From the NCBI GenBank assembly GCA_973895155.1, contig OZ316893.1:11796359-11860358 (forward strand): DNA of 64,000 bases, written 5' to 3'. This document shows positions 4,095-60,428 of this stretch, one piece after another. The notes below the pieces were generated by a model. The model saw nothing but the letters and a program-made list of their open reading frames with translations, was not told the DNA's origin and did no database searches. A program made the position numbers and the translations under genes. Origin of the DNA: Marsupella aquatica. Lineage: Eukaryota; Plantae; Marchantiophyta. Each line of letters begins with the position of its first letter. The stretch's first letter is position 1.

Positions 4095-4345
4095 TACACA
4101 GTAGTTCCACCATTTACGCATAGTAGTTTTACAAACTAGATGCATAGTAATTCCACCAACTACGCATAGTAGTTGCACCAATTACGCATAGTATTTTCAC
4201 CAACTACGCATAGTAGTTGTACCAATTACGTATAGTAGTTTCACCAACTACACATAGTAGTTGCACCAATTACGTATAGTAGTTCCACCAATTACGCGTA
4301 ATAATTCCACCAACTACGCACGATAGTTCCACCAACTATGAATAG
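4095..4345 (+). repeat. 22-bp tandem minisatellite (TAGTAGTTCCACCAACTACGCA consensus, ~11 copies)
   Basis: Head-to-tail degenerate units with no unique spacers, followed by a TATA-bearing LTR-like segment at ~4340-4475. Confidence 0.9.
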
Positions 4346-5444
4346 TACTAGCACACTTATAGGTGCTTGATGCTTGCCACTTGGCTTCCATCCAAGGGTC
4401 AAGGCATCGATCCATGCCCTCTTGGAAAACACAAAGGGGCACTATAAATAAAGTGAAGAGGAGCACACTCTCCTCATTCGCATTTATTTGATCTATCGTG
4501 TTGGACTCGCAACACTGTAAGGAACTCTTCCCCTCTTGTGCACATGTCTTGTTTATTATTTACCTCCATGCTTGGGTACTAACTTGATTGTTAGCCTTAG
4601 AACTATTTTATATTTTATGTTTATTAGTCTTGAGATCAATTTAGTGTGCTTGTAATAAATAATATGATAAATGGAGTACCTAGAGTTTATCCTCCACCTG
4701 CTGTGCCATTTGTCAATCCTTTCTTAATTAGAATTCATTGTCTTAGCAAGCATACCATGAGAATGCATCTTCTTTATCATTTTGGGTTTGAGTTAATGGA
4801 AACAGTTATGAATAGCGATGCACCATTTGTATACCCGATTGTTGTTTATGGAAATGAATGGAATGTAACTATTTTTATTTTATATTAGATGGATTTTAAT
4901 AGACAATCCGTAAATATACCGGAGTTAGATTTGAATAGGCTTCCTAATAATGTGTCTGATTTTCCTTCATCTATTGACATTAGAGTGGTATGCCGTAAGA
5001 AGGTTGATTGTAGAGATGTTTTAGTTAGAAAGTATGGAGATGAAAGATACAATGTTATGCTTAGGATGCCAGAGCCTGTGATTATATCATCTATGGTAAA
5101 TCTTAAGATCATAGTCTTTGTTTTCTATAATTGACTTATCTAATTGTAGGATTCGTTGGAAATTGCAATCTATGACTTGACTTGGGAAGTAAGTTATGTG
5201 GAAAGAGGATAGGCTGATTCGAGGCTTAGTGTGAGGAAGCCGCTCATCATAGAGTGGGACAGAGGCTGTGAGAGATATTTTAGAGGATAACGGTGAGAGA
5301 AATTGATCGACAAAGGGGATCGCAAGGGTAATGTGAGGTGAGAAAAGACGTATTTTGGAAAGGTTTCTTCCAAGATAGGAAAAACAAGAGCTCGGTGCTT
5401 CCCAAGAACTAAAGATTCCCCCGACAGCGCCCAGGCATGTGGGT

Positions 5445-8500: not shown

Positions 8501-9507
8501 TCGCTCCAACAATTGGCCATTTGTTCTTTTCTCACTCCAATTTGTATCGAAAGCTCCAATTTTCTATTTTCCTCTTTCACTTTCAAAATCCCCCCTTGTC
8601 AACCGCTTCACCACTCTATGTCACCTGAAAACCTCTTCGCCCTGTTCTTCCAAAGACAAGTTCAACAACAACCAACAACAAAATTGTACCCTCACAATCG
8701 GCTTCCTTCTTTTTCCCTCCCCAAACCCACATAGCACTCGCCACTCTTGTTTGATGTGCCTCTGAACTTCACTCTAACCTCCGCCTCAACTGCAACGTGC
8801 ACAATGTCCTTATGAAACTCAAATCTTCCCAGCCCGCCACGTGTCTCTTCCACAATAAAAGCCTCAAATTCCTTAAGTCTAAGCTTCACTTCTCTCTTTT
8901 TAATTCCTATTGTCTTATTGAACTTTTCCCACAACAACAAAACTCACACCCAAACTGAATCCCTTCCCCAAATATCTCCAACTCAAAAATAGGGCCTTCA
9001 CTTCCCTTCCCCTATTATTCATCCCGACGACACCGGTATGTTGGGACAAGCTACACTTTTTGGGCCATGAGCATGTCTTGGGGGCTGGGCGATCAATTGG
9101 TGATGGATAGGTAGAAGGGGGAACCCGAGCTACACCCAAGGAAGGAGTTGTTCTGAACAAATAGTGAGTGTCGGTTCTGGTTCCGACTTATGGCATTGGG
9201 AGGACCTATTGCTGACCTACTTAGCAATGTCTGTTGAACTTGAGTTAGGATATATGCTAGGCTTGGGAGATCTAGATCTTAAGGGGATACTTACTGAGAC
9301 CCTTGGTTGATTGTGCAGACAGTGAGGACCGTTGAGTAGCGGTCGTGTTAGAGAGCAAGTACGGCTTCGTATGGGAGGGGTCGCATGCGGTGTAAGGGAC
9401 ATTGGGTTGCTTGCTCAAGGTATTCCGTGGAGGCGTTTGGGCACCAGGGGCACTTAGGCGTGGGTGTTGGGATTGGTGAGGGTGTTGGGTGGCAAGGTCC
9501 ACCACTG

Positions 9508-10150: not shown

Positions 10151-12429
10151 TTTTGCTTGGATCAAATTCTTGCAAGTCAGATCACAACACAATATTCAGT
10201 ATATGCTTGGTTATCATAACCAGGAACTTAAAATACAAAGGTGGAATGAGCTGAAGACAGACCTCCCTCGGGGTAATTGGATTCTTGGCGGAGATTTTAA
10301 CATGAAGAAAATGAGAGAAGATTCGATGGGTATCTCCCCTATGACCAGGGGAGGAGAAGTGAAACTATGGAGATTCTTGAAGGTCAGGCTTGACTTGGCT
10401 GATGCATTTTTAATCAAAGAGGAAGCTTCTGGAGCTCGATTCATGTGGAGGCGATGCAAGAATAATGTGATGGTGCAGTCTAGACTCGACAGATTTTACA
10501 TCAGCAAAAAGGGGGAGTGGCTAGGAAAGCTGACGGAATTGATACATGATGGAGGCTCAGCCCTCTCGGATCATGATCCAGTGATTTTAACCCTTCAATT
10601 AGGTAATGCGGACGGTGGTTTCACACACTCACGGGTGGTGTGGTTAAAGCAAATCCAGCGATGGTTGGAAAAGAGGAAACTTGGAAGAGCTAGAAGCAGC
10701 ATGGCAACAAGGTAAAGGAGAGTGCTCCAAACCCTTGCTAGATTTTGATAAGGCTAATTATAGTCTGAGGAAGGATGTACAGGCAGAAGCAAAGTTCCCC
10801 TAAAGATCAAGAGCAGGATCGAGAGGAAAAAATGTTAATGCTTCGCAACCAACTACGTGCGCTTAAAATAATTATATTAGAGGAGGCAGTTTTTAGTGAA
10901 TACATCAATGTGGAGGACCATCTACACGCGGCTGAATTGGAAGAGGCGCACATTGGGAGGCGTCTGGCCAAAATAAAGTGGTTAGGAGAAGGTGAGGAGC
11001 CGACCAAAGTTTACTTTGCAACGGTGAAAGCAAAGCACTGCAGAGAAGCAATGAAATCTCTGATTATTGAGGGGGGGATCGAGATCACGGACCCTAGGCT
11101 GATTCTATAAGAAGTTGTTCAGTAGTGTAAGCAGCTATACGCCCCTGTTGCCCCTACTGTGGCTGAACGCGGGGAGATGGTGTGTGCTCACAAAACGTTG
11201 CTAGCACACACCAGACACTATCGACTACGGACTTAACAAAGATGGAAAATCTCCCAGAATGCAAAGAAATCAAGGAGACTCTGTGGATGCTATCACCAGA
11301 CAAGACACCAAGTCCGAACGGGATGACAGGTGAAGTATACAGAGCATGTTGGGACTTCATTCATGAGGACCTGACTGCTATGATACATGTATTATGGCTG
11401 ACGGGCGAATTGGATTAAGGATGGGATCATTAAATTTATCCCTAAGAAGCCAGATAAACGGTTCTTGAAGGATTGGCGTCCTCTCACAATGTTGAATACA
11501 GTCTACAAACTCATAGCTAAGATCCTAGCCGCTTGGCTGAAGGCTGTCTTACCTAAGATGATAAATGCGCAACAGGCAGTGTTTATCCCTAGGCGAAACA
11601 TTCTGGAAAATATATCTCTTGCTTGGTTAATGTGTGATTGGGTGAAGAATAGGAAAGTAGAATCATTATTTCTCAAACTAGACTTTGAGAAGGCATTTGA
11701 TAGGGTCAACCATGACTACATGTGGCCCGAGACAATGCATTTACTGGGGATCAGTAGTCATTTTATTAAGTTAGTTCAAGCGCTACTTACAGAGGCCAGC
11801 TCACGAGCACTTGTGAATGGTCTGCTATCAAAATCAATTGGGTTGAACCGTGGTGTCAGGCAAGGATGTCCATTGTCTCCACTACTCTTTGTAATATCAA
11901 CTCAACCTCTAATGGACCTGATGGAGCCAGAGCTGCTAGCAGGGAGGTTACTAGGAATCAAGATCTCCAAGGAATTAATAATCTGTTGTAGATTTTTTGT
12001 GGACGACTTAGGTATGTTTATCCCTACAATAGAGAGGAGCTTTCATATGGCCAAAACAGTTCTGACTTGCTACAAAACTACCACAGGAGCCAATTGAACC
12101 TGAAAAAATTGGTGGTGATCCCACTAGCAATTTTGTCTATCCCACGCTGGCTGACAAATACAGGCTGTATAGCTAGCAAAAAAGGAGAGATGCAGAAATA
12201 TCTAGGTGCACCTCTGGGGCTGGATCTGAGAACAGATCAACATCGCAGGTCTATTTTGGACAAGATAGACGCAAGTCTCTCATCTTGGGCTAACAAATTG
12301 TTGTCATTTTTTGGAAGGGTTCTACTGGTTCGCCACATACTCTAGGCAATTCCAATTTATCACTCAATGTTTCTAAAAGCCTTAGAGGGGTTGGCGAAGA
12401 AACTGATTGCACTATGCAGGGATTTCCTA

Positions 12430-12760
12430 TGTCACACCATTCTAGGTAGTGTTAGAGTGTATCGTACTATCTAGATCCGTATGTTTGGTATGTGTGCTAT
12501 ATGACCCGATAAGGTTCCGTTAGGTTTGTGTGAGAGGGTACTTCTCACTTGTGAGGCATTGAAAGATAATCTTTCAATGTTGAGCCTTGGAGAGAGAGGA
12601 GCTTGAGTGTGGCTATGGTGGCTGTGAGCTCCGCTTGTGTAACGTGGATTCCTTGAGTAGTGCAAGGTGCGTTGGCTTGACATACGTGTGTGATTGGATC
12701 GGTGCGGGATCGATGGGGTATTGTTGACCAGGATTGTTGTGCCAATTGTTGAGGAGATTA
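12430..12760 (+). repeat. Terminal repeat A1 (331 bp)
   Basis: Same length as A2 (21435-21765), 12 mismatches by manual alignment. Confidence 0.95.
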
Positions 12761-12771
12761 CATTGAAAGAT
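12760..12771 (+). promoter_or_regulatory. Putative self-priming primer-binding site
   Basis: ACATTGAAAGAT, immediately after A1, is the exact reverse complement of ATCTTTCAATGT (12569-12580) inside A. No TGG-type tRNA PBS at this position. Confidence 0.7.
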
Positions 12772-14023
12772 CAGATGTGAACTTTGCTATGCGGACTGTG
12801 CAAACAAAAGTTTGTATGTGTTGATTGAGTTGGCGACGGTTTGGGGAAATCATTGTGTGGATCCGTGGTAGCTCGGATCGTATTGAATAGATCGTTGGCA
12901 TCTTGGTTGGTTGCTGGTAACGGATCTGAAGTGGGAGATCCAAGTTCTGAAGTTCTGCTGTTGATGGTTTTTGGACAGAGTTCTCAAGCAGATCGGTGGT
13001 GCCCTCCGATCATTGTGAAGCCTTTGATAAGCTGATTGGGTGATTATTGTGAGCTCTTTGATAAGGATTTGTGCGTGTAGTGGGCTGCTCTGTAGATCTG
13101 AATCTGCATATCAATTGGTCGATGTTTGTTCCATTTTTCGGGAAGAAAGAAAAGAGCTTTCGACAATTTTTGGGTTCCTGCTGGTCGACAACTTTTCATG
13201 AAGGAAATCAGCAGTTTTTGGGAGCTTTTCGTGAAAGAAGTAGTCATTTTTGGGGTCAGGTGTGAGGCACGCGAGGTCACCTATCCCGAAAGTGCTCCCA
13301 ACCACAAGCGCGAAGTCATCCATCGTGAGCGCAGGTAGGCGCGAGGTCGAGGTCACCCATCCCGGGGCTATTATGGGCCGTGAGCGCGAGGGGAGGCACG
13401 AGGGCTATTCCAAGTCGCGAGCGCAAGGCGAAGCGCAAGGTCACCCATCTTGGGGCTATTCTCAGCCGCAAGCGCTTAACTGGCAAGTTCTCATCCCACC
13501 TTATGTACACACAAGTTTTCACAACTTGTTGTTTAGATTCAAGTGCCAGAGGGCTTTATACACTTTCCGGTTTGCTTAGAGCCTTGTTTCGGGCCAAATT
13601 AGAGGTTCTTTAGAGAGGTTTTTGATAGTTTTGAGTTCATCTAAATACACAGATTGAACCAATTCTGCATGGTTTCTCATCTATAACATTGGGACATCAT
13701 GAAGCCTATTATGAAGGCCTTTCATTGAATATTATGAAGATTTGTTTGATCAATGTGTGATCACTCTTGGTGTGGAGAGTTAGTGTTTGACTATTCTTGT
13801 TGATTGGATCCTCTCCACACTTGTTTCCTGTTTATGCGCCATGTTGGTTTGGTATGGGCGCTTGATTCCATAGGAGTGATCCGGGTTTGCAAACGGACAT
13901 TCTAGTGTGCTGTGTATTTCTCTCCTAGTGATGTTGGAGTGATGCCCAACACACCATGGTGAGTGCTTGTGGTGCTGACAGGGACAGATTGCCCTTAGGG
14001 TTAGCACATAGATTAGATTAGGG

Positions 14024-15260
14024 TTGGTCACCACGGATTCTTCTGGTGCTGCTGGGTTACCTGATGGACGACGGACCGGTTTCACTCGGAGTGGGGCACA
14101 ATTTCGGCCAGCGGCATTGGTAGCAGTCAACAATGCAGCTTTAGATAGTGATTCCGATGAGGACTCAGTCACCAGTTCTCCTCATCATCAGGTGGTTGCA
14201 CCTTTGTTGTGGGATATGGACGAGATGTACGGGGCTACAAAGGGCCCACGACGATACTCTGGTGCAGTTGGCACAATTGATCTGGATGACTTCATCCAGG
14301 AGTTTGATACGTGGTGCGATATGCAGACACTGCATAACGCCACATTATTTACCCCTTTCATGGCATGGAAAGGATTATTTCAGCATTTGGAGGGGCCACC
14401 CATGGATGACTACCATGAGTTTGGGAAGGCTCATTTAGTTGAGATTGAGGCATGGAGGCAACATTGATCGCCTAATTATGTGTCCATCACCTATGGCACT
14501 AGTGCGGCTGCCCAACCCATTGCCACAGCTGCTGCTTCTTCTAGCAGCACTAGCCAGAGTGGCACACCATCCACCAGCAACACTCAAGCAGCATCCACCG
14601 CTACTCCTGCCGGTGTGATTGTGACAGGAACTGGAGTTGCGCCAGCATTTAACCCTGTGGTGGAATTCTTTGAGGTACTGAAGCAGAACTATCAGGGTGT
14701 GAGAACTGATAAGTTGAAGGGTCTCCAGGAGTTTCAGCGCAAGACTGGAGAGAGTCTACGCGAGGCATACACTCGTATGCGCAGATTGATCACCGTCACC
14801 AAGGGAGTGACAGAGGCTCAGGCAGTCCAGTTTTGGTATGCAATTCTGGGCAGAGAATTGTGACGCAGAGTGAGAGATGTCACCCTGCTTAGGGATGCAG
14901 ATCCCACATTGGCAATTGTTTTTACCCTTTCTAAGCATATTGAGCTCAATATGGTGAATGAGAAGGTGGTGACTTCTGGATTTTCCAAGGAAGCACCAAA
15001 GGCTGCATCTATATCCACACCACAGCCTACTGCACGGAAGAGCCAGAGGGAGAAGCCTACTGCACGAGAGTCTACCAGCCAGAGACTTGTGCCCTCTTAT
15101 GTTGGACAGCAGTCAGGATGTTGGACTTGTGGTGGGGATCATGCACAGAGATATTGCCCAGATCATAGAGGATCAGGGGGAGCATCAGCGCCTAATCAGC
15201 GATAGTGTGATCACTGTGGAGCTCCTGGACACACCAAGGATAGGTGTTTCTCACTCCACC
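14024..15260 (+). pseudogene. Gag region of the retroelement polyprotein, with two zinc knuckles
   Basis: DLDDFIQEFDTWC and FQRKTGESLREAYTRMRRL (retrotransposon gag-like). Knuckles CWTCGGDHAQRYC and CDHCGAPGHTKDRC. In-frame stops; true start not resolved. Confidence 0.85.
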
Positions 15261-16099
15261 CTGAGTTACGGAGAGGAGGATCACGTACACATGATCAGGG
15301 AAGAGGAGGAGGAGGTAGAGGTGGTGGACATGGTCGTGGCATGCCACATGCAGGGAGACAGGGAGGTGACGTTGCCCTTGTTGTAACCATAGATCCAAAG
15401 GATGCTAAAATTGCTCAATTGGAGCAACAACTAGCTGCCATGGCTAGTTCCCAGGTGAGACCTAATTCTGGTGATGGGGCATCTACATCCTATGGACCTT
15501 CCACATCCCATGGTCCTTCCACATCTTATGGAGCTGATGGAGACCTTGCCACCATGGGATTCATGTGTGGCACTGCACATATTGATGCATCAGCAGCGTT
15601 GACACGTGGGGCAGCCAAAGCTCTTGAGCCCCGAGGAGCAGTAGTGGAGTTAAATCCACAGAGGGGGGATGCACATCGGCAGACAAAGCTTCCTCAATCT
15701 TTTACATTGTCAGAGATAGTTCAGACTCCCTCTATGAACCTGGTTCGGACAAACCCTTATGTGGGTAAGTTGGCAGAATCAGGTAGTGATGCAGTAGGGA
15801 TGACAGGTACCCTGCTGGGGGCGGCTACTGCCATGGTACACACCCCATTATTTTCAGCGACAGACATGCTGAACTTGGGAGTTGGTCCTGTAGAAGTGTT
15901 CAGATTGGCAGCTACACTCTATGAGGACACTCCAGTGGTTGCTTCCCATGTAGAAGCAGCTTGCAGTGTTGAAGCAGTGAAGATCATGCCACCTACTGCT
16001 ACTAGTGAGACATGGCATGCAGCAGCAGCAAGGTTGGTGGATTTACCAGCACGCCCTCCATTTGAGAGGACTAGGTTTAATCCTAGAATTGTGTCATTG

Positions 16100-16500
16100 G
16101 ATAATCAAAGTGGTATCTTCCGATTAGTTGGGCCTTCTAGGGCAGTATACCAGCCAGAGAGAGTGTTATTGGATACTGGTGCTCAGCCCTTGATGTTGGG
16201 TAAGTCTGCCATATGTGGATTGGGATTGCGTCCAGAGGATTTGGAGGATTGTCCCTTTCCCATTCAGACTTCATTGGGGGGACCTACACCTACATAGCAC
16301 ATTACCAGGAGACCTCTTGATTTAAGGATTCAGGAAGGTCATACCACAGATAGCTCACAAATACAGGCGCGAGCTATTCTGACTAAGGCAGAGTCATATG
16401 ATGTGTTGGTGGGATGTACAGTGCTCTACCCCATGGGATTTATTCTTGATTTTTGGGAGGAATCAGTGTCATACAGACCTGATTGGCAGTCAAGAGATGC
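16100..16500 (+). pseudogene. Aspartic protease domain
   Basis: VLLDTGAQPLMLG (DTG at ~16172) and downstream YDVLVG, in the same frame as gag. Confidence 0.85.
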
Positions 16501-16879
16501 TCGATTGAGCAAATTTCCAGTGAGATTTAGTGGACCTGTGGGAGGCCCTAAATCCACACCATTGTCTTTGGCAACATTCAGTGGTCTAATTGCTGGACCT
16601 GATGATTTGATTGAGGGTAATGCGCATTCAGCAGATGTTCCACCCTTGGAGGAGTCTCATGAGGAGCACATCATGTGAGGATTACCTGTTGGCAGTGTTG
16701 TGCCACCAGTGTGGGGCACTGCACAGGCCTTGCCACAGGCAACAGCACGATTGGTACATGATGCATGGCGTCATGCTTGTACACCATAGTCAGGACCAGA
16801 GCAGTCTCTTGCAGATGGACCTGTGACTCTTTCACCATTGGATACCACTCCTATTGCTTGGCAATATCCACTGGAGGGT

Positions 16880-17830
16880 ATTTGTTTGTTGGATCTTTTT
16901 GGTGGGATTAGCACTAGATTGGCTGCTGTTCTTCAGACAAGAATTCTTGTGCGTCGTTATTTGTATGTGGAGACAGATGAGACAGCACGGAGGGTCTCAT
17001 TGTGACATGTGGCTATGTTGGTGGATAGATATCCACAATTGCTGCCAGTGAATGCTGTTCGTGGTTATCAGCACTAGTTACCTGCTGATATTTCATTGCT
17101 GGGGGCGGATCATCTACATCGTGTTGGCCCCATTGATTTGGTGATTGCTGGTTGGCCATGTTAGGGCCAATCTAGAGCTGGCATTGGGCATGGACTTCAT
17201 GATCCACGCTCTGCACTATTTTGGGAGATGTTACGGGTGCTACATCATCTCCAGCTACATCAAATACAGTCTCCAACATACATTTTGGAGAATGTGCCAT
17301 TGTTAGGTGATGATCGTAGTCGGATTGTTGCTAGTGTTCACCAGGTGAGGTCTTGGATTGGACCTGTTGTGTTATTGGATGCTGCACGTGTGGGTTCTCG
17401 TGCACATCGTCCACACTTGTGGTGGACCAATTTGATCCCATATGAGGTGCTGAAGCGCGCATCTGACAGCATTCCACGCTCACCAGCCTTAGTGGTGGAT
17501 GATATTTTGGATCCAGGGCGTCGTGCACAGGGTGTGACCCAACCTGATAGACCTCCATTGGTAGTGGTCAATGCAGTTGGGCGCCCACGTTGTGCATTAC
17601 CCATTCTTGTAAGCCACTCTGCTTCATATGCATTCAGAGAAGGTGGCCCTGGACTTGTGTGGGACACAGCTCTCCAACAGTTAGTGGAGTCTACTGCTGA
17701 TGAGAGAGAGCGTGCTATGGGATTTTTGACTGGCACCACTGCAGTTGCCTCTGTGTCAGAGGGTTTGCGGCGCCAGGTTCTTGGTCAAGCAATGGATCTG
17801 AATTGTTTGACTTGGATTATCAGCTTGGGA
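16880..17830 (+). pseudogene. DNA (cytosine-5) methyltransferase domain, DNMT3-like, inside the polyprotein
   Basis: Motif I LDLFGGI, II YVETD, IV DLVIAGWPC*GQSRAG (catalytic Cys 17159-17161), VI YILENV, VIII DAARVGSRAHRPHLWWTN, IX ERERAMGF, X RRQVLGQAMDL. Canonical order, same frame as gag, PR and RT; three premature stops. Confidence 0.92.
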
Positions 17831-18043
17831 GTAGCTGAACAGTTGCGGATGCACTCTGCTAGAATTACTGATTGTCCCTTGGTGAGCTTGCGGTCCACTG
17901 AGACAGTACTGACCACAGTTGGGGGCGAGCAGACCTATGGACCTATGGCTGGACAGATTGTTGAGTAGGAAGGGACTGCTCAATCTACTACTAAATAGCA
18001 AACATCAACTATCTCTTCTACCCTACAAAGAGATATTAGGGAT

Positions 18044-19593
18044 TTGGTGGAGAGTTGGGAACCACAGCTTGGCCCTAAGTTGACAGGGAAGGAGAGACGT
18101 CGCATGCATCGATTCCTAAAGAGTTATTGGAATTGTTTTGCATTTAGCATGAAGGATTTGGGGACATTAAAGGGTCCTGGTATTCAGATTGAATTGGCTA
18201 GTGATGCGCCAATCTTTCATAGGCCATACCATTACAGTGACATGGAGAGAGCTCTGATTCAAAGTAGAACTCAAGATTTGTTGGAGGCTGGATTGGTGGA
18301 GATTTCATATGGGAAGTATGCATCTGCCATAGTGATGTCAGCCAAGAAGGATGTGCATGGCAATTACACAGATAGGCGCATGTATGGTGATTATAGACCC
18401 ATTAATCGCCAGACAAAATCTGATAGATATGCCATGCCCACACCTGAGGAGATCTTTGATGCTGTGGGGCATGCAAAGGTTTTTAGTTCATTGGATCTAA
18501 GGGCAGGGTACCATCAGCTTCCAATTAGGCATGCTGACAGGTCCAAGACAACATTCTGGGGGATTGATTCTTATAGCAAAGATCGTTTGTATCAATGGTT
18601 ATTCTTACCATTTGGATTGAAGAATGCACCAGCTGAGTTCCAGAGAGTCATGGATCGAATCCTTGCAGGTTTGGATTTTGTCAGATGTTATATTGATGAT
18701 ATTTTGGTTTATTCTTCTACTGTGGAAGAACATCAGCAGCACTTGCAGATTGTGTTGGAGAGATTGAGAGCACATGGGTTGAAGCTCCATCCTAGCAAGT
18801 GTAAGTTCTTCCAAGACCAGATTGAGTATTTGGGCCACACTATATACCCAGGGGGATTGGGTGTACAGCAAACTAAAGTGGAGGCCATTACAGAGATTCC
18901 TTGTCCTACTGATGTGAGTAGAGTTCGTGCATTCTTGGGATTGGCGAGCTACTACAGGAGGTATGTTAAAAGATTTAGCGAGCTTGTTAAACCTTTGACC
19001 ATACTCACTAAGTTGGATCAGAAATGGATTTGGGCTGATGACCAGGAGCATGCCTTTCAGGAGTTGAAGCAAAGGTTGGCATCATCCCCTATTTTGAGAA
19101 GACCCATTTCAGGCAGACCATTTCAGCCACACACTGATTGGAGTGGAGTAGGACTTGGAGCAGTGCTGACTCAGAAGGATGATGAGGGGAATGAGTTTGT
19201 TGTGGCTTATGCCAATAGATCAACAATTCAGCAGAGGCTAAGTATAGCTCTTATGAGGGAGAATGTTTGGCAGCAGTGTGGGTTGTTGCACATTTTCGTT
19301 GCTACTTGTTTGGTAACCCCTTCACCTTGATCACTGATCATCAGCCTCTTAAGTGGTTAATGGAGTCTGACAAGCTTATAGGGAAGCTTGCACGATGGGC
19401 ATTGTTGTTACAGGAGTATGATTTCCAGGTGGTACATAGGCCTGGGAAAGTGAACTTGGATGCAGATGGATTAAGCCGCAATCCATGTACTAGTCAGCAG
19501 GATGAGACTGGAGCCAGATGGCATGATGAGTCAGATAAGGAGATGGTGCCAGGATGGCATGCATCTGCCTTTCTTTGTTGGGTGCCAGCATAA
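18044..19593 (+). pseudogene. Ty3/gypsy reverse transcriptase and RNase H
   Basis: DYRPIN, LDLRAGYHQ, LPFGLKNAP, YIDD; RNase H TDWS, EGECLA, TDHQPL. One frameshift near 19220. Confidence 0.95.
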
Positions 19594-19602
19594 AGTGGAT
19601 TT

Positions 19603-20945
19603 GTGGACTCTACCTCATTGGATGGAGTGGATGAGGAGTCTTCAGATGTGGATGTTGGTGAGGTAACTTCTGGACAACAAGATATTCAAAATGATGTGAG
19701 AGTGTTGGAATATCTGCGTAGTGGTTCTATTGTTGGCAGTGTTGATGCCAACGAACGTGACAGGGTTCTACAAAGAGCCAAGAGGTTTCGATGGGAGAGA
19801 AACCATCTTTTGAGAGTACTGCATGATGGCAGGGTGTTGGTGGTACCAAAACCATCACAACGAGTCCATTTGGTGCGACATGCACACGAGGAGTTGGGGC
19901 ACCTTGGTGTGAAGCGCACTTATAGCTTGTTGCAGACACAGTATTGGTGGCGTGGTATGCACACTCATGTCCAGCAGTTGATAGCTAAGTGTGTGGTAGG
20001 TGATAGAGTGAGAGCATCATTTAATGCTCCCACTCCCTAGTTGCACCCGTTGCCGATCATGGGTTTGGGATATCGTTGGAGTTTGGATTTTGCTGGTCCA
20101 TTACCTCTTACCCAACGTCATAATCAGTATATTTTGGTCATGGTGGAGCACTTCTCCAAGTGGATTGAGCTAGTGGCATTGCCAGATAAAGCCAGTGGAG
20201 GAGTTGCTGCTACATTTTTGGATCGTGTACTTAGTCATTTTGGAGCACCAGCTGAGGTATTGACTGATCAGGGAACTGAGTTCCGTGGAGAGTTTGAGAA
20301 TTTGTGTGAGCAAGCTCTGATTGATCATTGTACTACCTCTCATGATCATCCTGAGGCAGATGGATTAGCTGAGAGAGTTGTGCAAACTATGAAGAGAGGA
20401 TTGCGTAAGTATGGCTTGCAGGTTGGTCATTTGGGAGATTGGGATCTCCAGCTACCTTGGTTAGCTATGGGCTACCGTTTCAGTCGGCAAACATCACTTG
20501 CATCTTTCCACCTTACTTTTTGCTCTATGGTAGAGAGCCAGATTTGCCAGCAGCTATTCGTCGTGATGTTGCACCAATTGTGAACTTGGATGATCCTGAT
20601 GTTTGGGCCAAGGTGTGTTCAGAGAGAGCACAGGTATTTCAGAGAGTGATATCCATGGCTTTTGACAACCTTGCCATTGCCCAACATCATGATACTTTGA
20701 GGTATGCCACTATTCATGGAGGAGGTTACCGTGCAAGCATTCGACGATTTCATCTTGGTGATTATGTTTATTTGCAGCAGACAGCACCCACGACACTTGA
20801 TGTGACCGCAAACCGGACAATCTTACGTGTGCATGAAGTGTTGCCTTCTGGTGTCTTGATGTTGGAGGGACGCGATGGTATGGTTTGGAAGGATTATGTG
20901 CGCAACTGTGCACCATGTCACCTCCCAACATTGATGGTACAATAG
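19603..20945 (+). pseudogene. DDE integrase (HHCC zinc finger, rve core and C-terminal region)
   Basis: HEELGHLG...WWRGM...CVVG (last Cys lost); WSLDFAGP, LTDQGTEF, DGLAER. Frameshifts near 20510 and 20930. Confidence 0.93.
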
Positions 20946-20980
20946 ATCCAAGCTTGGCACATGTTCGTGCTGGCTTGAAA

Positions 20981-21121
20981 TGTATGTTGTGTGGATCTGC
21001 TCAGGGAGCAACTACTATGTTGATTTGTGATAAGTGTTCTAGAGGATGGCACATGTCATGTTTGACACCACCATTGCAGGTGATTCCTAGTGGATCATGG
21101 TTGTGTCCTCAGTGTCGGTGA
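20981..21121 (+). pseudogene. C-terminal PHD finger of the integrase
   Basis: CMLC...MLICDKCSRGWHMSCLTPPLQVIPSGSWLCPQC is a C4HC3 PHD pattern, followed by the stop. Confidence 0.9.
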
Positions 21122-21285
21122 AGCCAACTAGTTATCATTTGTGTTCTCTTGGCAGATATGGATTGCAGGTAGGTGATCGATGGGGCTCACTTGCATCCGG
21201 CCTCTTGATCTTCACACCTAAAAAGGTGTATATCAACCTTGTAGAACTCATGGCTAGCTAGAGTTAGGGGACCTTACTTCCAGCT

Positions 21286-21295
21286 AGGGGGGCGA
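21286..21295 (+). promoter_or_regulatory. Polypurine tract
   Basis: AGGGGGGCGA immediately before repeat B1. Confidence 0.75.
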
Positions 21296-21432
21296 TTGTG
21301 GGTTTTGGACATATGTGGACATGAGTTCCACTTGTATTCCATTCTCTTGTGTTTGTGATGTGGCAGTGTGACTATGTCTGGATGTATATGACAAGCGATG
21401 TATGTTATGTAGTGATGTGTATGCACACGACA
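21296..21432 (+). repeat. Repeat B1 (137 bp)
   Basis: Matches B2 (21766-21902), 11 mismatches by eye; ends ...CACGACA. Confidence 0.95.
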
Positions 21433-21434
21433 AC

Positions 21435-21765
21435 TATCACACCATTCTAGGTACTGGTAGAGTGTATCATACTATCTAGATCCGTATATTTGGTATGTGT
21501 GCTATATGACCCGATAAGGTTCCGTTAGGTTTGTGTGAGAGGGTACTTCTCACTTGTGAGGCATTGAAAGGTCATCTTTCAATGTTGAGCCTTGGAGAGA
21601 GAGGAGCTTGAGTGTGGCTATGGTGGCTGTGAGCTCCGCTTGTGTAACGTGGATTCCTTGAGTAGTGCAAGGTGCGTTGGCTTGACATACGTGTGTGATC
21701 GGATCGGTGCGGGATCAATGGGGTATTGTTGACCGGGATCGTTGTGCCGATTGTTGAGGAGATTA
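21435..21765 (+). repeat. Repeat A2 (331 bp)
   Basis: Copy of 12430-12760, separated from B1 by the dinucleotide AC. Confidence 0.95.
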
Positions 21766-21902
21766 TTGTGGGTTTTGGACATGTGTGGACATGAGTTCCA
21801 CTTGTATTCCATTCTCTTGTGTTTGTGATGTGGCAGTGTGACTATGTTTTGATATATGTGACAAGCGATGTATGTTGTGTAGCAATGTGTATGCGCATGA
21901 TA
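21766..21902 (+). repeat. Terminal repeat B2 (137 bp)
   Basis: Copy of B1, abutting A2 and followed by the TSD CCTA. Confidence 0.95.
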
Positions 21903-22747
21903 CCTATGGGGGTACAATTCGGAGGGAGGAAAACATGTTCCACTGGTTCCTTGGGCTAGGTTGGCTAGACCCAGAGTTGAAGGTGGATTGGGGCTAAAAG
22001 TCATTCAGACGCGCTTTTGTCTCAATGGTTTACTGGGGCTTTAGACTCCCCCAATACTGAATGGGCAAGGTTGTTTGCTGAAAATCTGAGGCTGGTTAGC
22101 TGGGTGAACTTTAAGGTGATCCAAAGGAATCAATATTTTTTCCAAGACAAAATGTTATTATGTTGTCCTTGTTCATTCAATGGATTAGCTTACCTTGGTG
22201 GGCTGTGGAAAGCTTGGATCCAACTCTGGGCACACTTGATCTTTTTGACTACCACTGTTATGCCCGGTAGATGGATAGTAAATGATGCTCTCCGTTGCTT
22301 AAAGGGACTACAGGCCTGGCCTAACGAGGACTATGCAGTGGTTACAAGACTATGTGGTAGGATGGATATCCGTTGCATTCAGGACTTATGGTCTGGGGAC
22401 TCTCATGAATAGCGCAACATGGAAGCCAAATTGGAGCAGACAGAGGGTTCACCCGGAGAGAGAAGAGCTGCTGCAGAGATTTTTTGAGGAAGATCAGGGA
22501 AACTAAAAGTTGCAACAAGAATGTTGCCCCCGGATTGCGATGTTGGTGTTGGGCCGACTGTCCTGATGGCCTAAAAGCATTTAGGATCAACAATCGGCGG
22601 GCTTATATCCTTCTACACCCCTCTATAGGAGATCATGGTAAACTGAATTATACATGGAGCAGTCACAAAACTGACGTGGAATGGAACTCTCTATGGACAG
22701 GACTGTGATGTTCAGACTTATCATCTCGGGCTAAGACATTTATCTGG

Positions 22748-23258
22748 GGGTAGCGAGGATCATCAATTATCAACCACCCCCTAGATAAACATTTTTTATC
22801 AGCCACCCCCCAGATAAGCGAATTTTTTTGAATCTCAGTTGAGCAGCTAAGATGACGACTTTGCACTTCCACGCATCTCACCTAGGCAGCTGAGATTGAC
22901 TCAATCTCAGCTGACCTCGCCGAGATTGGCGTGCGGACAAAAAAAATGAGAAAAAAATTATTTTCTTGAAAAATTCAAAACAAAAAAGAATTTGAGAAAA
23001 AAATCGACAAAATTTGGTGTCCGTACCGTATGGACATCTGGCCATCTCGGCTGGCCCCGCCGAGAAGTGACGTCCGTACGGTACGGATACCCATAGTGAA
23101 AAAAATTTCAAAAATTTTTTTTTTTTATTCATCAAATTTTGAGAAAAAAAAATTAAAAAAAAAATTCGCATTTTTTTCGGCTCTGCATCTTGGCGGTCTC
23201 TCTGAGATGATGTGACAACTGATGAAAACGACTCATAACTGATGATGTAATTTTACTC
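22748..23258 (+). mobile_element. ~510-bp Mutator-like MITE inserted in the LINE
   Basis: 9-bp TSD TTTATCTGG/TTTATCTAG. Removing it restores LINE TFIWRVLISGLFT. Imperfect TIRs GGGTAGCGAGGATCATCAATTAT / ATAACTGATGATGTAATTTTACTC. Confidence 0.8.
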
Positions 23259-24089
23259 TTTATCTAGAGGGTCCTGATATCAGGGCTGTTCACAAGTGTG
23301 AGAGCAGTTCGCATCGGCAAGGGAGAGGGTCACTGCAAGTTGTGCACCGGGGTTATTGAAACCATCCCCCATCTTTTTGCTTAATGTGCATGTCAAGAGA
23401 TACTGGGCTATGGGCTCCGGTTGCTTTCAAGGCACCTTTGTGGACTATTCTGAAAAGTTATTGGAGATGGAGGACTTGATTGTGAGAAAAGACACTTACA
23501 AGGTGGCAAAATTATTCATTTTAATACCCAGATGTTTCAACCAAATGGTTACAGGAGATTTGATCTGAGATTTATCCTCTCAAAAGCTGTAGACTATGTG
23601 ACAGCGATTGATCTGTGTTTGTCTCCGGGGAGATAACACTAGATTGCTTCGAGTAAAAGAGTTCATTAATATATCAGGAAAGAGTTGCCTGGGTGCATAG
23701 ACATAATGTGTGGATTACCTCTGGTTGATACCAGATTTGATGTATAGGTCTTCTGTTAGATGGGTATTTTGGATGAAGCACCCGCTTTATGATTTGGGAT
23801 ACCTGTTAAAGGTCACTTGGGGAGTTTAGATAGTGATTAGCGATCCGTCTGGGTGTTGCTTGGTGCTGGTTTTTTTTTTAATAGGCTGTTGTTATGGTTT
23901 TGTGTTGGGCTTGATTATTTCCCCCGACCATGGGGTTTTCGTGGCCCATATGTTATTAAAGGAAAAAAAAATTCAAGGAAAATATAAATGTCATATAGTG
24001 GTTATCATAACCATGAATTAAAAATACAAATATATAGTTTTTCCGGAAAATTTAAGCTGCTATAACAAACTCAAAAATGCAATCTCAAA

Positions 24090-25640
24090 CTTACCCTCCA
24101 ATAGTCTAGCTCCTTGTTCAAAGCGTTTAGTCGCTTTACACCATACTTTTTGCTTGGATCATTTGGACCATCTTCTCTACCTCCTTCTTGATCATACACC
24201 ACCTTCAAAGCTGCCCAAGTTGAAATCTCCTCTTTGGTAACTCTTGGTGGGGGACCACACAACTTTTTGTTCTTATCAAAGTGTGTTATTTGAGATGCTC
24301 TATGTCTATAAGGGTGATCTAGTAGAAGAAACCTATGATGTCCTTGGAACTTAAATGCTTGCAAAGTTTTTGAATATACACTAGTCACATTGAGATCACA
24401 GGTAGAACAACCCAAATATGAATAAAGTTACATCATCAGTTATCAGTCATTCTCATCATTTTACCTGATATCAGTCCCACATCATCTCAGAGAGACCGCC
24501 GAGTTGCGGCGAGAAAAAAAATGGAAATTTAAAGAAAAAATTCCAAAATTTAAGAGGATTTTTTTTCTGGGAATTTTTTTTACTATGCGCTGTTTGTACC
24601 ATACGAACGTCTATCTAGACGAGACTAGCTGAGATTGGCTGCCCCATCTCAGAGAGGTACAAGCTGAGATGGACTATGTTCGTACAGTACGGATGCGTAC
24701 TTTCGGGATTAATTTTTTTCAAATTATTTTTTTCAGAAAATTTGGGATTTTTTTTTGAATTTTTTTTTTCCGTATACCTATCTTGGCAAGGTAAGCCAAG
24801 ATTGGGCCAATTTCAGCTGCCCAACTGAAATACACAAAGGTGCAGAGGCTTATCTTGGCTACTCAACTAAGATTCAAAGAAATTAAAGGCGAAAAACTGA
24901 TAATTGATGATCCTCGCTACCCCCCCAAGTATCCTTTTGTAGCCTGGCCTGAGATCATGTCATGTGCAGGATAATCTGCTATTGTTAACATCAAGATGAC
25001 CTTAAGTAAAAATGGGCTAGATCTACCAACTCTTTGTAATACACCATAGGTAATCACCCCTTCCTCCCATAGCTTCTTTAGCTCCTCTATTAGTGGAGCC
25101 AAATACACATGATCTATATTCTTAGAAAGAGCTGAGTCTGGCCTAGGAATTAACAAAGTTAAACAACACAAAGAACCTCTTTTTTGACATGCAAGGAGGG
25201 AGGTTATAATTCAAGAGGATTACAGGCCAACAAGGCAATATATTTTTCTTATCTCCAAATGGATTCACCCCATCCAAAGAAAATCCAAACCTAACATTTT
25301 TTGTCTCAGCTACAAACTCTGGATACTTCTCATCTATAAGTTCCCATTGTTTGGAATCTCCAGCATGCCTTTGCAATCCATCAGGGCTTGTCAGTTGTCC
25401 AAGTCATCATTTCTAAGATGACATTGCATCTATACATCCATTATAACCTTGGAATCAAAGGGAAGTGACAAGTACCTTTACAGGTTGTTTGGATCTCCCA
25501 ACATTTTTATATCTATGCTTGCCGCAGGAAGGGCATGTCAAACAATCAACATACTCTCCTCTGAAAAGAACATGACCATCAAGGCAATCATGGATTGAAT
25601 TGTAACTCAAACCTAAACTAGATATCAACCTCCTAGCCTG
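24090..25640 (-). pseudogene. CACTA/En-Spm transposase (Transposase_21) remnant, upstream part
   Basis: NVRFGFSLDGVNPFG, WPVILLNYNLPP, YLAPLIEELKKLWEEGV, TIADYPA, GHHRFL..DHPYR, ELDYW followed by a GTAAGT donor. Frameshifted and split by a MITE. Confidence 0.9.
24420..24923 (-). mobile_element. Second copy of the ~500-bp Mutator-like MITE, inverted, inserted in the CACTA transposase
   Basis: Ends are reverse complements of those at 22748-23258. 9-bp TSD CCCAAATAT/CCCAAGTAT. Removal restores GQATKGYLGCSTC. Confidence 0.82.
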
Positions 25641-34144: not shown

Positions 34145-37100
34145 ATGGGGCTCACCTGCAAAATTTGTTTCGAGCGAGCCTCGGATCAAGAGAACGGCTC
34201 GCAAGCTCGGATTACGCCCTGCGGTCATGTCTTCTGCGCTCCGTGTGCTGCGATTTGGTTTCGGAATGATGCGCCCTGCCCGGTGTGCCGCCACTCCGTA
34301 GCCGCACCTTCCGCTCTCATACCTCTCTATGACCACGATTCCGGCATACAATCACCATCGTATGGTCTCGACACTATACTTGATTGTGGGAACGCCGATT
34401 TGTTGCAAGATTGGTATGTATGTATGTAAAGACAGAAGGAGAGGGAGGGAGGGAGGGAGGGAGTCAGGCAGAGAACCTGTTAGGTCTGGGGTGTGGGGAC
34501 GGGCACGAGCAAACGAAGCAGAGACAACAGGGACATATTTGGGCTTTAGAGGGAAAGAGACAGCACAAGTCATTTTCAAACCGCACTTGCATCCAATAAG
34601 TCCATTGAACTGAGAATTAGACAGAAGATGCTTCTTGTCGCCGAATTTCCATTATCGAATGGAATCAGTACGCTCTTCCCAAGTTCTTCCTTCTATGGGG
34701 GTTTGCTTAGCTACTAAATTATTTGTAATCTTGCACAGTTCTTATCTGTACAGACATCTAGTCCCTGGGCAAATGTAGACAACTCGGATAAGCACCACTC
34801 CACTGCGAGGAAGCTTTTCACGATTCAGATTGGATCGGAAGGTTCCTGGAAAACTGTGGATGACAAAACGCTTTTAATTGATATATTATTTGTATCCTTA
34901 TCTGACCTATTAAACCCCTACAATTCTTGAGCTGGGATTGGCAATCCAGCAAACGGGCTCGTTGTACTAAACTTGACCCAATGCAAAACTTTTACATAAA
35001 ATTGTAGAATCCTGATGCTATGAACCATATACGGAAAGCTTATCTTCATGTCTCGTGAGTGAGGTTTGTTCTTGAGAGTTCCGTGATGCCCGTCACTGGA
35101 ATTATCGTTTACCTGTCCTTTTTGGACCTTTTTATTGTGCGTAATTGTTTATAGCGATCGAAGTTTCTGAATTCATCACGTGGTTTCGCTTGGCAGTTCG
35201 GAACTCTACTTTGGGCCTATAGAGAAGGAAGTGTGTTCAGAGGATTTGTTGGAAAAACTATCATCTTTTCGAAGGAAATCGTTTACTGTGGAAGTTATCT
35301 AAAGGATAAGGATGCCGGATCTGTCTAAAGGTCTTCTGTATTGGATTGTGCAGTGTTGGAGACCAATCTGAGGAGAGTGTCAACGGTGAGCCCTTGAATG
35401 GAAAGCAGAAATTTTCCCCAGAGAAAGGAAGCTCTGGAAACTGGGAATACAAGGACAAGTCCGAATCAAGAGAAGGGTTCAACAATGAAAGATCAGGGGT
35501 TACTAGTTGCTTGCCAAAGTGTGGAACCGAGGATGAGGATATACAGGTTAAATTCGTGTTAGGCAAATTGGCTGAGCGATGGCAACAGGTAGTGTTGGAG
35601 AGAGCAAAATTGAAAGTACAGGTTGCGAAGTTGGAGAAACTGAAAGGGGATCTCTCAACTCAAGTGCAATCTCTGACTGAGGAGAATATGATACTTAAGC
35701 AGGCCCTCAGCATGAGATGTAGACCAGTCGTTAGGAGTAGCGTTGTTGACGGCACGGCCGCCTGGGATGGTGAAAGTGAGATTAGCTTCCATGGAGATGG
35801 TATGTGTCAGGGATTTGACAGGGACTCGGAGGCAAACGGAAGTCTTCTGCAATCTTCGATCAACCATCCGGAGCTGTCTTTTAGCGGGACTGAGGCAGCC
35901 TTCAATAATGTAATAGTCTCGAGGCGCCCTCCGGTTAAAATAGAGGAGAGATTAGCAGCTGCCAAATGGGAACTTGGCCATACGTTTTCAATGCACTCTG
36001 GCCCAGTTCATGGAATTGCTGTTAGTCCTTCTGGGAATCTGGTAGCCACAGCATCCTGGGACCATTTATGTAGAGTATATGATGTCCATTTAGAGGAGGA
36101 AGTATCTGTGCTATCAGGTCACCTTCTCGGACTATATGCTGTTAAGTTTTCTCCAGCAAAACGTGATCTGGTGGGCACTGTAAGCTCCGATCATACATGC
36201 CGCTTATGGAATACGGACACTGGAGAATGTCTACATGTACTTGAAGGCCACACAGATGAGGTGATTGCTCAGTACTCTTTGTACTAATGCCTACCATCTC
36301 GCTTTGACTATAAATTATTTTAAGGTTCAGTGAATTAAGGGCATGAGATCTAGGAGATCTATTAATTAATGCATTACATATATTCCTCCAACTCGCGTCT
36401 ACTATTTCAGGAGGATCCTGTTGGCATCATGGAGTCCGTAATATCCTCTTTGCGTCTGCATACAGGTCAATGGATTGTCTTTTAAGCAGGGAACACATCT
36501 ATTAGCAACTGCATCGGATGATAAATCCAGCATAATATGGGATGCAGAGAAAGGTGTTGCCGTAACAACTTTAAAGGTACGACCTTCACCCGTTCGATGC
36601 GTCTTTATCGGGCTAGGTCAGGTTGTCATTGGTGCAATGCACAGAATCTGGCCCGATGTTACTACAAGGAAGATGATTTAGAGCTGTTCTAGTCGTGTCC
36701 GAAATGTGATCTTCATCAACATTTTAGGTTCTCTGCAGGCAAGAAGGGCGTACTAGCACATTAGGGAGACATCAAGGGAGGAGGTGACCTGTTTACTTCA
36801 CTGAGATTGAATGAAGTTATCTGCGTTGTCACCTCGTGCCTCCCAGCTCTCTAGATTGACTCGTCATCATACCCAATTGTCTTCCAGGGCCATCGGAACG
36901 GTGTGTATGGTGTTTGTTTTCAACCTGCTGGACACCTTGTAGCAACGGCCTCATTTGACTTCACTGCAAAATTGTGGGATCCACGTTCGGCAGAAGATAT
37001 TCAGACACTGCGAGGTCACCAAGAGGATGTCATCGGCGTGGACATTGATGACTCTGGCACCTTCCTTGCTACTGGAAGTGATGACAAAACTTGTCGTGTT

Positions 37101-40600: not shown

Positions 40601-40934
40601 TGATTTAGAGGAAAGTGCTGTAAGAATTTGTGGAAAGAACAAATAGGACGGAGAAGGGATGGAGGAAGAAGAGGCCGATTGACGGGGGAGACGATTCTAT
40701 TCTCCAACTCGCTACTGAACCTTCGGCTTATTATCCTCAGGAGCCTAGCGGCAGGGACAGGAAAAGGAGGAAGCAATAGGTGGGTTTCAGAAGAAGGGTC
40801 GGAGCCTCAGGCCTGGGGGTTCCATCAGCAGCAGCCGAGACGAGCTGTTGCTGTTGGACTGCGAGGAGAAAGCGCAGCAACAGGAGAGAGGAGGAGGAGG
40901 GGACAGGGACAAAATTCGAGGGAAAGAGCAACAG

Positions 40935-59122: not shown

Positions 59123-60156
59123 TTGAGGAATGAGGAGCACCAGAGAGGCGAGTCAGCTGCTCTTACTACGGGGGGGAGACGAGAAGTGGCGAATGTCCCT
59201 CGTAGGGAAAAGGAAACTAACTCGGCATGCGCAGGTAGTGAGGGTGCGGACACGGAGGAGTCTGAGCAGGATGAGGGGGTGGTATCGGCTGAATGTATCA
59301 ACATACTCAAGGAGGCGGCGGCTTCTACTACTGGAGATTGGAGTACTAAATTGTATACATCCGTGGAATGGAGTCTGGGTGAAGCAGCGAACAATGCGAG
59401 GCAGTTGTATAACTGCGGTATGCTTTGTTATTTTACGGATTGGACTCCGATGCTGCCAAGCTTTCAAGCTTGGATTGTGGGTCGTATGGTGGAAGAAAGG
59501 AATTGGCCAGTTTTGCAAATTAAATTTGTTGGTAAGAGTTTTTATCTAGTGGTCTTTGAGAATGCAGACCATAGAGATTTGGCGCTAACTTCAGCACCTT
59601 GGTTTTTGGAACGTAAACTGGTATACATGTTCCCATGGGACCCTTCTTTTGATATCCGGAATGAGAAGTTCACCAAGCTGCCTGTATGGATAGAGCTGCC
59701 ATTTCGGGCTTTGATTCTGGAAGGATGCCGTATGAAAATTGCAGAATCACTTGGGAAGTTGCTGCATTATATACAAGGAGATGATTATAGCTCCTATCCG
59801 CATGATAGAGCATGTATTCTGTGGGACACTGAACGGGAGGTGCCGCATAGTGCTCGGGTGGAGATTCGTGGAGCCATAATTATATGGCAACCAATTGTGT
59901 TCAAAACATCCCCTATCATTGTTTCAGATGCAATAAGAAGGGACATTTGGCAAGGGATTGCAGGGAGGGAAGAGATGTGGTGGCTGAGGCAGATCAAGAG
60001 AATAATGATGAGGACCTGGTGGGAACTCCTGAGGAATTGGATGCAGTGGCGGAGGGGGATCCGGAGGAGGTTCTTAGAACCCAACTTGAAATGAACTTGC
60101 AAGTAAGACAAGGAGCGGGGCTGATGGCACTGCGAGGAGAGTACTGTCACAGCTGA
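59123..60156 (+). pseudogene. LINE ORF1 (DUF4283-like region and zinc knuckle), frameshifted
   Basis: FYLVVFEN..RDLALTSAPWF...WDPSF...LPVWIELP; CFRCNKKGHLARDC in a shifted frame. Confidence 0.88.
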
Positions 60157-60428
60157 TATAGTAGCTATTGAATCGCTGATGAGTAAGGATAGGACTTCTT
60201 CCCCGGTGCAATTGCAAGAAACACCTTTGGGGATGGGGCAGAGTGTGGATGGCTCGACTGAGCTGCAGGACTCCTCGCTGCTAATAGTAGATTCACATAT
60301 GGAGGAGACCGGAGAGATAGCCATTGGCACACCAAGGCGCCGCAAGGGGGGGAGTGTGAGCTTGGCTACCTCTTCGGGTGGGCGAATGCGGATTTAGCTC
60401 ATGGGTGTTGGAGCCGGGGACAGAGGGG

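Follow-up and report, generated by a model that had tools for sequence, protein, structure and literature searches.

An internal palindromic junction and the integrated ends of a Ty3/Gypsy element in Marsupella aquatica: evidence for a possible route through joined cDNA tips

Introduction

Why would a retrotransposon carry inside its own body what look like its right and left termini, placed head to head? The question is raised by an element in the window, the stretch of 64,000 nucleotides of Marsupella aquatica DNA (contig OZ316893.1) that was analysed here. The first-pass annotation had noticed that the two termini are separated by a 2-nt spacer and had proposed that a circularised cDNA was reopened by integrase at such an internal site. 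It has long been asked whether retroviral-type integration can truly start from circles. We compared the element with other copies of its family, with related families in metagenomes and with published Gypsy families of Chlamydomonas reinhardtii. These comparisons lead us to a reading to which we give roughly two chances in three: the cDNA tips would be joined into a two-LTR circle, and the DDE integrase would then open a palindrome on the primer-binding site (PBS) side, inside the reverse-transcription LTR.

Results

Layout and coding content of the element

A decayed Ty3/Gypsy element of 9.47 kb occupies positions 12430-21902 of the window on the forward strand, with the repeat layout A...B-NN-A-B. 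The left repeat A1 (12430..12759) starts TGTCAC, reading TGTCACAC from 12430, and other copies start at this same TG next to unlike flanks; base 12760 (A) can be assigned either to A1 or to the PBS. Comparison of the repeats delimits B1 (21295..21432, ending CACGACA), A2 (21435..21764, reading TATCACAC from 21435) and B2 (21765..21902), the right end of the element. The CA end is seen at B1 and in other copies; the outer right end of the window copy has decayed to CATGATA. A1 and A2 differ at 12 of 331 sites, B1 and B2 at 11 of 136.

CCTA stands on both sides of the element (12426..12429 and 21903..21906, forward strand), so the 4-bp target-site duplication (TSD) read by the first-pass annotation is correct. 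The left TSD lies in an L1-like LINE, whose reading frame the element splits at RDFL/WG; the other LINE copy of the window, at 59123-63337, was used as an empty-site control and has an unbroken RDFLWG. The two L1-like copies (59123-63337 and 10041-12429/21903-22170; DUF4283, endonuclease and RT) are ~70% alike. As in canonical Gypsy elements, the PBS follows the left repeat, the polypurine tract (PPT) precedes the right repeat, the ends are TG...CA, and the TSD is within 4-6 bp. Unlike in a canonical two-LTR element, the outer ends correspond to the internal B/A junction, 138 bp from the PPT, and not to the cDNA tips.

All coding regions of the element are interrupted by stops or frame changes. 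They comprise, on the forward strand, stop-broken gag fragments (14468..15240; CCHC-like motifs by eye and a weak Retrotrans_gag match, E 0.006, below the cut-off); an ORF (15206..16297) that has no Pfam match and is called protease only by its terminal LLDTGAQ (about 16166-16186), which we take to be an aspartic-protease-like motif; a stop-broken C5 cytosine methyltransferase (DNMT) domain (16889..17806; tblastn and a weak Pfam match), scoring 67% in tblastn against P0007, a Marchantia protein that carries PF00145; reverse transcriptase and RNase H, in a region that changes frame (17999..19590; profile matches); an integrase with H2C2 zinc-binding part and rve core (19594..20580), in which D16, D76 and E111 of the core ORF are intact and whose best solved relative is Ty3 Gag-Pol; and a PHD finger at the pol end (20837..21118; E 3e-12). 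The order gag-PR-RT-RH-IN is that of Ty3/Gypsy, with an extra DNMT inside pol between PR and RT. A chromodomain is absent from the integrase C-terminus, where the PHD finger is found instead, and a tyrosine recombinase has no match among 31 scanned ORFs of the element (67 ORFs of 55 aa or more are listed). Its closest named protein relatives come from Marchantia polymorpha (66-74%), which points to a probable bryophyte host. In two metagenomic relatives (L043:2352-3281 and L047:6479-7405) the DNMT stands between RNase H and integrase, whereas in the window's branch it stands between protease and RT; since its position differs within the clade, the DNMT moved or was gained twice there.

Elsewhere, the window holds two pairs of imperfect inverted repeats (53 and 42 nt) lying 1.2 kb apart at 23162-24530, possibly a non-autonomous DNA transposon; tandem arrays of 22-bp and 32-37-bp units (4097-4385 and 576-759), within a 4-kb stretch bounded by 40-nt inverted repeats (397-436/4440-4479); and host gene fragments with WD40 and KH domains (35310-36287 and 40749-41552).

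The internal junction and the integrated ends

The abutted ends lie at 21429..21438, on neither strand in particular, and read GACA-AC-TATC in the window and GACA-GC-TGTC in most copies. B1 ends with CACGACA at 21432 and is followed by AC (21433-34) and A2, giving CACGACA-AC-TATCAC; the letters given earlier for the junction and for the A/B joint agree with the window at 21432-21435 and 21759-72. Other copies of the family were collected from assembled contigs of 6 of 15 listed public runs, covering three organism codes and four studies, among which the best-matching run may be the source of the window itself. Position 21433 is G in 78, 75, 79 and 100% of summed contig depth in runs X1, X2, X3 and X5, and in a separate count in 78, 79, 74 and 80% in runs X1, X3, X4 and X8; 21436 is G in 82-100% (summed depths are not taken as copy numbers). 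With G prevailing at both positions, the junction of the family reads as the palindrome GACA-GC-TGTC; the window's AC results from a G-to-A change private to this copy. Across 21255-21480 no indels are listed at 1% in own-family contigs, and among 32 of the 1513 own-family contig pieces none spans from the PPT to the B end.

In runs X1, X3, X4 and X8, respectively, unlike flanks are found behind 21432 in 16, 18, 11 and 5 contigs, and before the TG in 12, 7, 6 and 5 (24 of 265 loose-end rows). Copies therefore end at CA and start at TG, without the GC, as the first-pass annotation had claimed for the spacer; the contig flanks break at these points and not at the PPT- and PBS-defined boundaries. 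The abutted ends thus have a short spacer of fixed length that is missing from the integrated ends.

Related families were surveyed in the best 79 of 422 metagenomic relatives. One natural A and one natural B copy match 27 of 80 loci, which represent 22 distinct insertions of a second family; five locus pairs are the same insertion and were counted once, and L025, in which B is cut by another insertion, was dropped from the counts. The B1/A2 spacer is 2 nt long in 12/12 distinct loci, namely 8/8 of the second family together with L001, L002, L052 and L047 (L001 and L047 are apparently collapsed or circularly permuted assemblies, of which the junctions alone were used). Its letters are GC in seven; AC, AT, AT or GT in four, all transition products of GC; and TT in one decayed locus, and a second assembly of L013 reads TC. 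The prediction of a constant AC spacer is thus right for the length and wrong for the letters, which are GC (74-100% of depth in the window's own family), and the TSD-like variation expected of tandem insertions is not seen in these 12 loci. Of six related loci in which the TSD could be tested, five have one of 4 bp, in one case with a mismatch.

The junction extends deep into the clade. L047 carries TGACA-GC-TGTCA ~50 bases after its PPT, and since a 10-bp palindrome of this kind has an expected count of only 0.004 in the 4.4 kb searched, it is not due to chance. In a midpoint-rooted FastTree phylogeny, L047 shares a branch with Haematococcus sequences on the far side of the clade's deepest split (support 0.93). 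The Klebsormidium nitens protein P0063 falls into the same RT/RNase H clade as the window element, and this clade sits apart from chromodomain-bearing sequences. No junction was found in 1.8 kb of L043. L071 appeared by self-comparison to have the A...BAB layout; its repeats are AT-rich flanking DNA, and it was discarded. Among viral contigs there is one distant locus, detected by protein; 78 matches to the 14-base junction pattern there show no similarity to the elements and were taken as chance. Four loci (L011:3322, L039:2066-2207, L044:1642 and L048:844) are deletion derivatives with pol fused into mid-A2, two of them near the putative RNA start.

The recurrence bears on the simplest account, a local accident in which a solo A-B unit or a second copy was inserted at the end of an A...B element, or in which the assembly is at fault. 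Such an origin could draw on the many A...B copies in the related family and on the divergence of the window repeats, 3.6% for the A pair versus 8.1% for the B pair (P 0.058). However, the element as a whole is enclosed by a single TSD, bryophyte-type families and Chlamydomonas alike have the fixed 2-nt spacer, and the same layout is found again at independent loci and in an active, curated element. We regard an accident as refuted by the fixed spacer and the recurrence, and it retains next to no credibility.

The junction in Chlamydomonas families

Gypsy families of C. reinhardtii were read from the record ends of library Dataset S15 (Craig et al., PMC9940879) and were not placed on the RT tree. 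In these record ends, 12 of 24 Gypsy families with an LTR record have a CA-GC-TG junction, six are canonical and six are undecidable. The internal records of families 2, 3, 6, 7, 8, 9, 10, 11 and N2 end with PPT + B + CA-GC, and their LTR records start with TG and end with the same B; in families 5, 21 and 24 the junction is at the other end of the record. B measures only 6-8 bp in families 2, 7, 8, 9 and 11. In the records of families 7, 8 and 9 a TGG PBS lies directly behind the A end and B abuts the PPT, which means that their A/B joint is tip to tip.

According to the Figure 6A legend of PMC9940879, the left LTR of Gypsy-7a lacks the last 8 bp of the right LTR; read against the library records, these 8 bp are B. 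The passages of that paper on this LTR difference draw no mechanistic conclusion from it. Gypsy-7a_cRei is active, with 86 new insertions reported there in CC-4532. These added about 1.3 Mb, which fits mostly full-length insertions (1.32 versus 1.15 Mb), a measure too coarse to discriminate. The canonical Gypsy-12_cRei has an internal record that starts with ~15 bases complementary, by eye, to a stretch near the LTR end, and is likely another self-primed element.

The A/B joint and priming

B1 is preceded by the PPT AGGGGGGCG (21286..21294, forward strand), the same tract that stands before B in related families. At the other boundary, A2/B2 reads GAGATTATTGTGGG (21759-72), and repeat comparison places the joint between primer-defined end and PPT-defined start at 21764..21766 (forward strand). 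The exact boundary can be shifted by one base, because an A occurs on either side. We favour GAGATT/ATTGTGGG, since the PPTs of Chlamydomonas families 7 and 8 end with GGGGCG. The joint GAGATT-A-TTGTGG thus combines the primer-defined and PPT-defined boundaries without loss, and its A-end letters precede B as loose ends in 41, 36, 18 and 16 own-family contigs.

The putative PBS (12760..12771, forward strand) is not of the tRNA type and is conserved in other copies (as a loose end in X2); no tRNA genes were found in the window. Its 12 bases are the exact reverse complement of 12569-80 (12569..12580, forward strand), the candidate self-primer at the presumed RNA 5' end. None of 2000 random interior 12-mers has such a match, so it is not due to chance and would be a signature of Tf1-type self-priming. 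In the second family the PBS matches A with 0-2 mismatches in 8 of 11 loci, and the matching primer site, at the presumed RNA 5' ends, is ~31 bases past a TATA-like motif; in L001 the self-primer match is 20 nt long. An 11-bp perfect hairpin surrounds the putative RNA start (12557..12579, forward strand; A2 counterpart 21562-21584), with similar hairpins in L001 (about 8823-8854), in L002 and in the second family (A about 155-180). In three families such a hairpin, perfect or nearly so, straddles this start, so that the PBS sequence occurs once more immediately before the self-primer. The putative R-U5-PBS RNA folds no more stably than shuffled sequences (z 0.32), and the 12-bp stem alone is informative.

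Among related loci the A/B joint is free of indels in 7 of 9. The two scarred joints are an insertion with foreign letters and a PPT remnant in L036 and a deletion in L044/48. A joint common to many copies and occasionally scarred, as in de novo joining, agrees with the first-pass view of it as the meeting of primer-defined and PPT-defined ends. The mostly exact joints, together with the single shared A in the window's family and in the second family, could also arise if reverse transcriptase jumped across the template ends through the shared A, doing the work of a ligase, with integrase then opening a nicked circle at the palindrome. The same letters, however, follow from plain blunt joining, given the 12-nt primer match and a PPT ending with GGGGCG; the records of Chlamydomonas families 7 and 9 have no shared base at the joint, and the L036 scar contains foreign letters. 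We therefore consider such a jump unlikely.

Alternatively, integrase could cut the palindrome of the linear cDNA first and insert both pieces, leaving the host to repair the A2/B2 break, with no circle at any stage. The product and the occasional scars would be the same, and one locus, L020, speaks for this order. There, a single contig has a right end (L020:3361-3878) composed of B-GC-A and the PBS, then bases 1-176 of A once more in reverse copy, and then flank: a fold-back of A without an A/B joint. L020 may be a fold-back from the PBS, with a retained primer copy, that was integrated at its TGACA end, or an assembly chimera; it suggests that the junction can be cut without joining of the tips. 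Against this order, breaking the chromosome with each insertion should leave scars at more joints than 2 of 9, and B measures only 6-8 bp in the records of the five short-B Chlamydomonas families named above. A B of this length would be too short to serve as an integrase end unless it was first joined to A, which favours joining before cutting. Cutting first is, in our view, quite improbable.

The two B copies of one element speak to their origin. The distance between B1 and B2 is below the between-copy mean in 4 of 5 loci and equal to it in one; they share 2, 5, 0, 7 and 0 minority variants across these loci, and no site is fixed between all B1 and all B2. Private variants common to both B repeats of a copy occur in 3 of 5 loci, so B2 was copied from the same cDNA as B1 and was not inherited separately. 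In L012, A-repeat identity within the copy is no higher than between copies. These data weigh on the proposal that the element is copied like DIRS/PAT elements, with RNA running through B2, template switches between A1/A2 and B1/B2 rebuilding the repeats, and the joint simply inherited. The layout is indeed that of split-direct-repeat elements as figured in PMC5890265, and the A/B joint is very constant. Yet B1 and B2 are not separate lineages, a normal PPT before B1 and a PBS after A1 are kept in all families seen, with the joint falling exactly there, and TSDs and a DDE integrase are present, with no tyrosine recombinase in the ORFs scanned. DIRS/PAT-like copying thus appears very unlikely.

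Alternative products

If either junction of a circle could be opened, ABA...B copies should exist, as the first-pass annotation had predicted. None was found at 10 left ends (0/10), nor among four two-repeat copies with both ends (0/4, P 0.06). The lack of ABA...B among left ends implies that the two junctions are not used alike. One listed X1 contig (record 3) may be A/B-gc-A.

The other predicted product, A...B, does occur. In the related family 8 of 16 loci read PPT-B-flank versus 8 of 16 with PPT-B-GC-A, and all four PPT-B-flank loci with a visible left end are A...B, three of them with matching TSDs. Terminal branches are longer in A...B than in BAB copies (7 versus 7, P 0.038, post hoc; without L018, which is misaligned, and L019, in which the region is absent). 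Recombination of B1 with B2, or collapse in assembly, may account for the A...B copies no less readily than one-LTR circles; being older on average and so possibly recombinants or collapsed assemblies, these copies argue only weakly for such circles.

Discussion

Judged from sequence comparison, the junction is a real and ancient feature of a Ty3/Gypsy variant. The model that we prefer, tip joining followed by opening of the palindrome, would proceed as follows. An RNA would run from inside A1 to inside A2, and its 5' end, as the 12-nt match suggests, would prime at the PBS in the manner of Tf1. Two strand transfers, a step established for LTR elements, would give a linear B-gc-A...B-gc-A, the PBS-defined and PPT-defined tips of which, to go by the joint sequence, would be joined, usually without loss. 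Staggered cuts 3' of CA on both strands would then produce CA-3'OH ends with 2-nt 5' GC overhangs, shaped like retroviral ends after processing, and strand transfer would yield A...B-gc-A-B with a 4-bp TSD and no GC at the ends, a product that is itself observed. Among the possible products it alone would keep R on both sides and could copy itself again. Because the left B must land behind the right A, tip joining would be required, and the ends would have to come from cuts in the palindrome. In the short-B algal families the joined junction alone has A behind the CA, which could explain why only one junction is used; with a B of 113-138 bp, nothing in the sequence explains the choice, a point that counts against the circle model. 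Of the original proposal of integration through the internal junction, the internal cut and the tip joining are well supported by comparison, and we infer the order of the two.

We lean, somewhat less firmly, towards a wider claim: in an ancient green-lineage Gypsy clade reaching from Chlamydomonas to bryophytes the two-LTR circle would be the obligatory integration substrate, and these elements, using a retroviral-type integrase, would have converged on the DIRS/PAT layout and on IS3-type circle-junction chemistry. A hard-wired ACA-GC-TGT site would replace end processing, and the tips would be joined in every cycle. If so, tip joining is seemingly the one way in which a whole clade can form its right end. 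The model can be tested directly, since Gypsy-7a_cRei, a member by structure, is proliferating in laboratory Chlamydomonas strains. The route would also explain why such elements escape LTR finders in which paired LTRs must be bounded by TG/CA and TSDs (as described for REXdb, PMC6317226).

The layout has been published. KnitGypsy-Dnmt3 of Klebsormidium nitens is described as combining Gypsy domains with repeats of the DIRS type (de Mendoza et al. 2018, PMC5890265, Fig. 4c legend) and resembles the window element in its Gypsy domains, its DNMT in pol and its A-coding-B-A-B repeats. The published layout, which can be compared by description, comes in that legend without junction sequence, TSD, priming or mechanism, and the searchable parts of the supplement of PMC5890265 contain no mechanism for it. 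Among the papers located, including a 2026 methyltransferase-element preprint, none names, in its accessible text, a CA-GC-TG junction or circle-junction integration for these Gypsy elements; an earlier description of the junction may exist within the same literature, in the REM1 paper, a thesis cited as Craig 2021 or Dataset S11 of PMC9940879. Comparison gives good support, short of proof, to both the conserved palindromic cut site and the tip-joining mechanism.

Gypsy-7a_cRei and its C. reinhardtii kin share with the window element the PHD finger in pol and, in their records, the PPT + B + CA-GC ends (PMC9940879). They differ in a B of 6-8 or about 50 bp, against 138 bp in the window, in the TGG tRNA-type PBS of families 7-10, where the window element would be self-primed, and, for Gypsy-7a, in that no DNMT is listed in the parts of that source that describe it. 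Tf1/Sushi elements and the plant Tcn1 chromoviruses likewise have a PBS complementary to an LTR-internal stretch and not to a tRNA, but they are described as having two full LTRs, ends at the cDNA tips and mostly chromodomains (PMC4600332, PMC6317226).

The integrases of HIV-1 and foamy virus can, under some conditions, cut palindromic 2-LTR junctions to CA-3' ends (PMC4372172), which resembles the cut proposed here in that a DDE integrase acts on palindromic abutted ends. In that account, HIV-1 two-LTR circles were long thought to be dead ends and are at most a back-up; the palindrome arises by tip joining, and the cut restores the linear form. In the window element, in contrast, the LTR has the palindrome built in, integrated copies retain the tip joint, and the element would depend on this route. 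The Panganiban-Temin circle model is reportedly a comparable 2-LTR circle precedent.

In IS3/IS30-type elements the spacer is short and comes from the donor flank. There is no RNA step and the transposase builds the junction anew, whereas the spacer of the window's clade is a fixed, inherited GC. The likeness to the copy-out-paste-in elements IS3, IS30, IS21 and IS256 lies in a DDE enzyme and an abutted left-right junction that serves as the integration substrate (PMC9333248).

The window element has a Gypsy pol, a DDE integrase and 4-bp TSDs, which sets it apart from DIRS elements of the PAT/Ngaro/TOC1 type. The latter have a tyrosine recombinase and neither a DDE integrase nor a protease. 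Common to both, as far as the description in PMC5890265 goes, is the A...B-A-B layout of split direct repeats with an internal end-to-end junction. If the proposed route is true, DDE retrotransposons would be linked to the split-repeat layout of DIRS elements.
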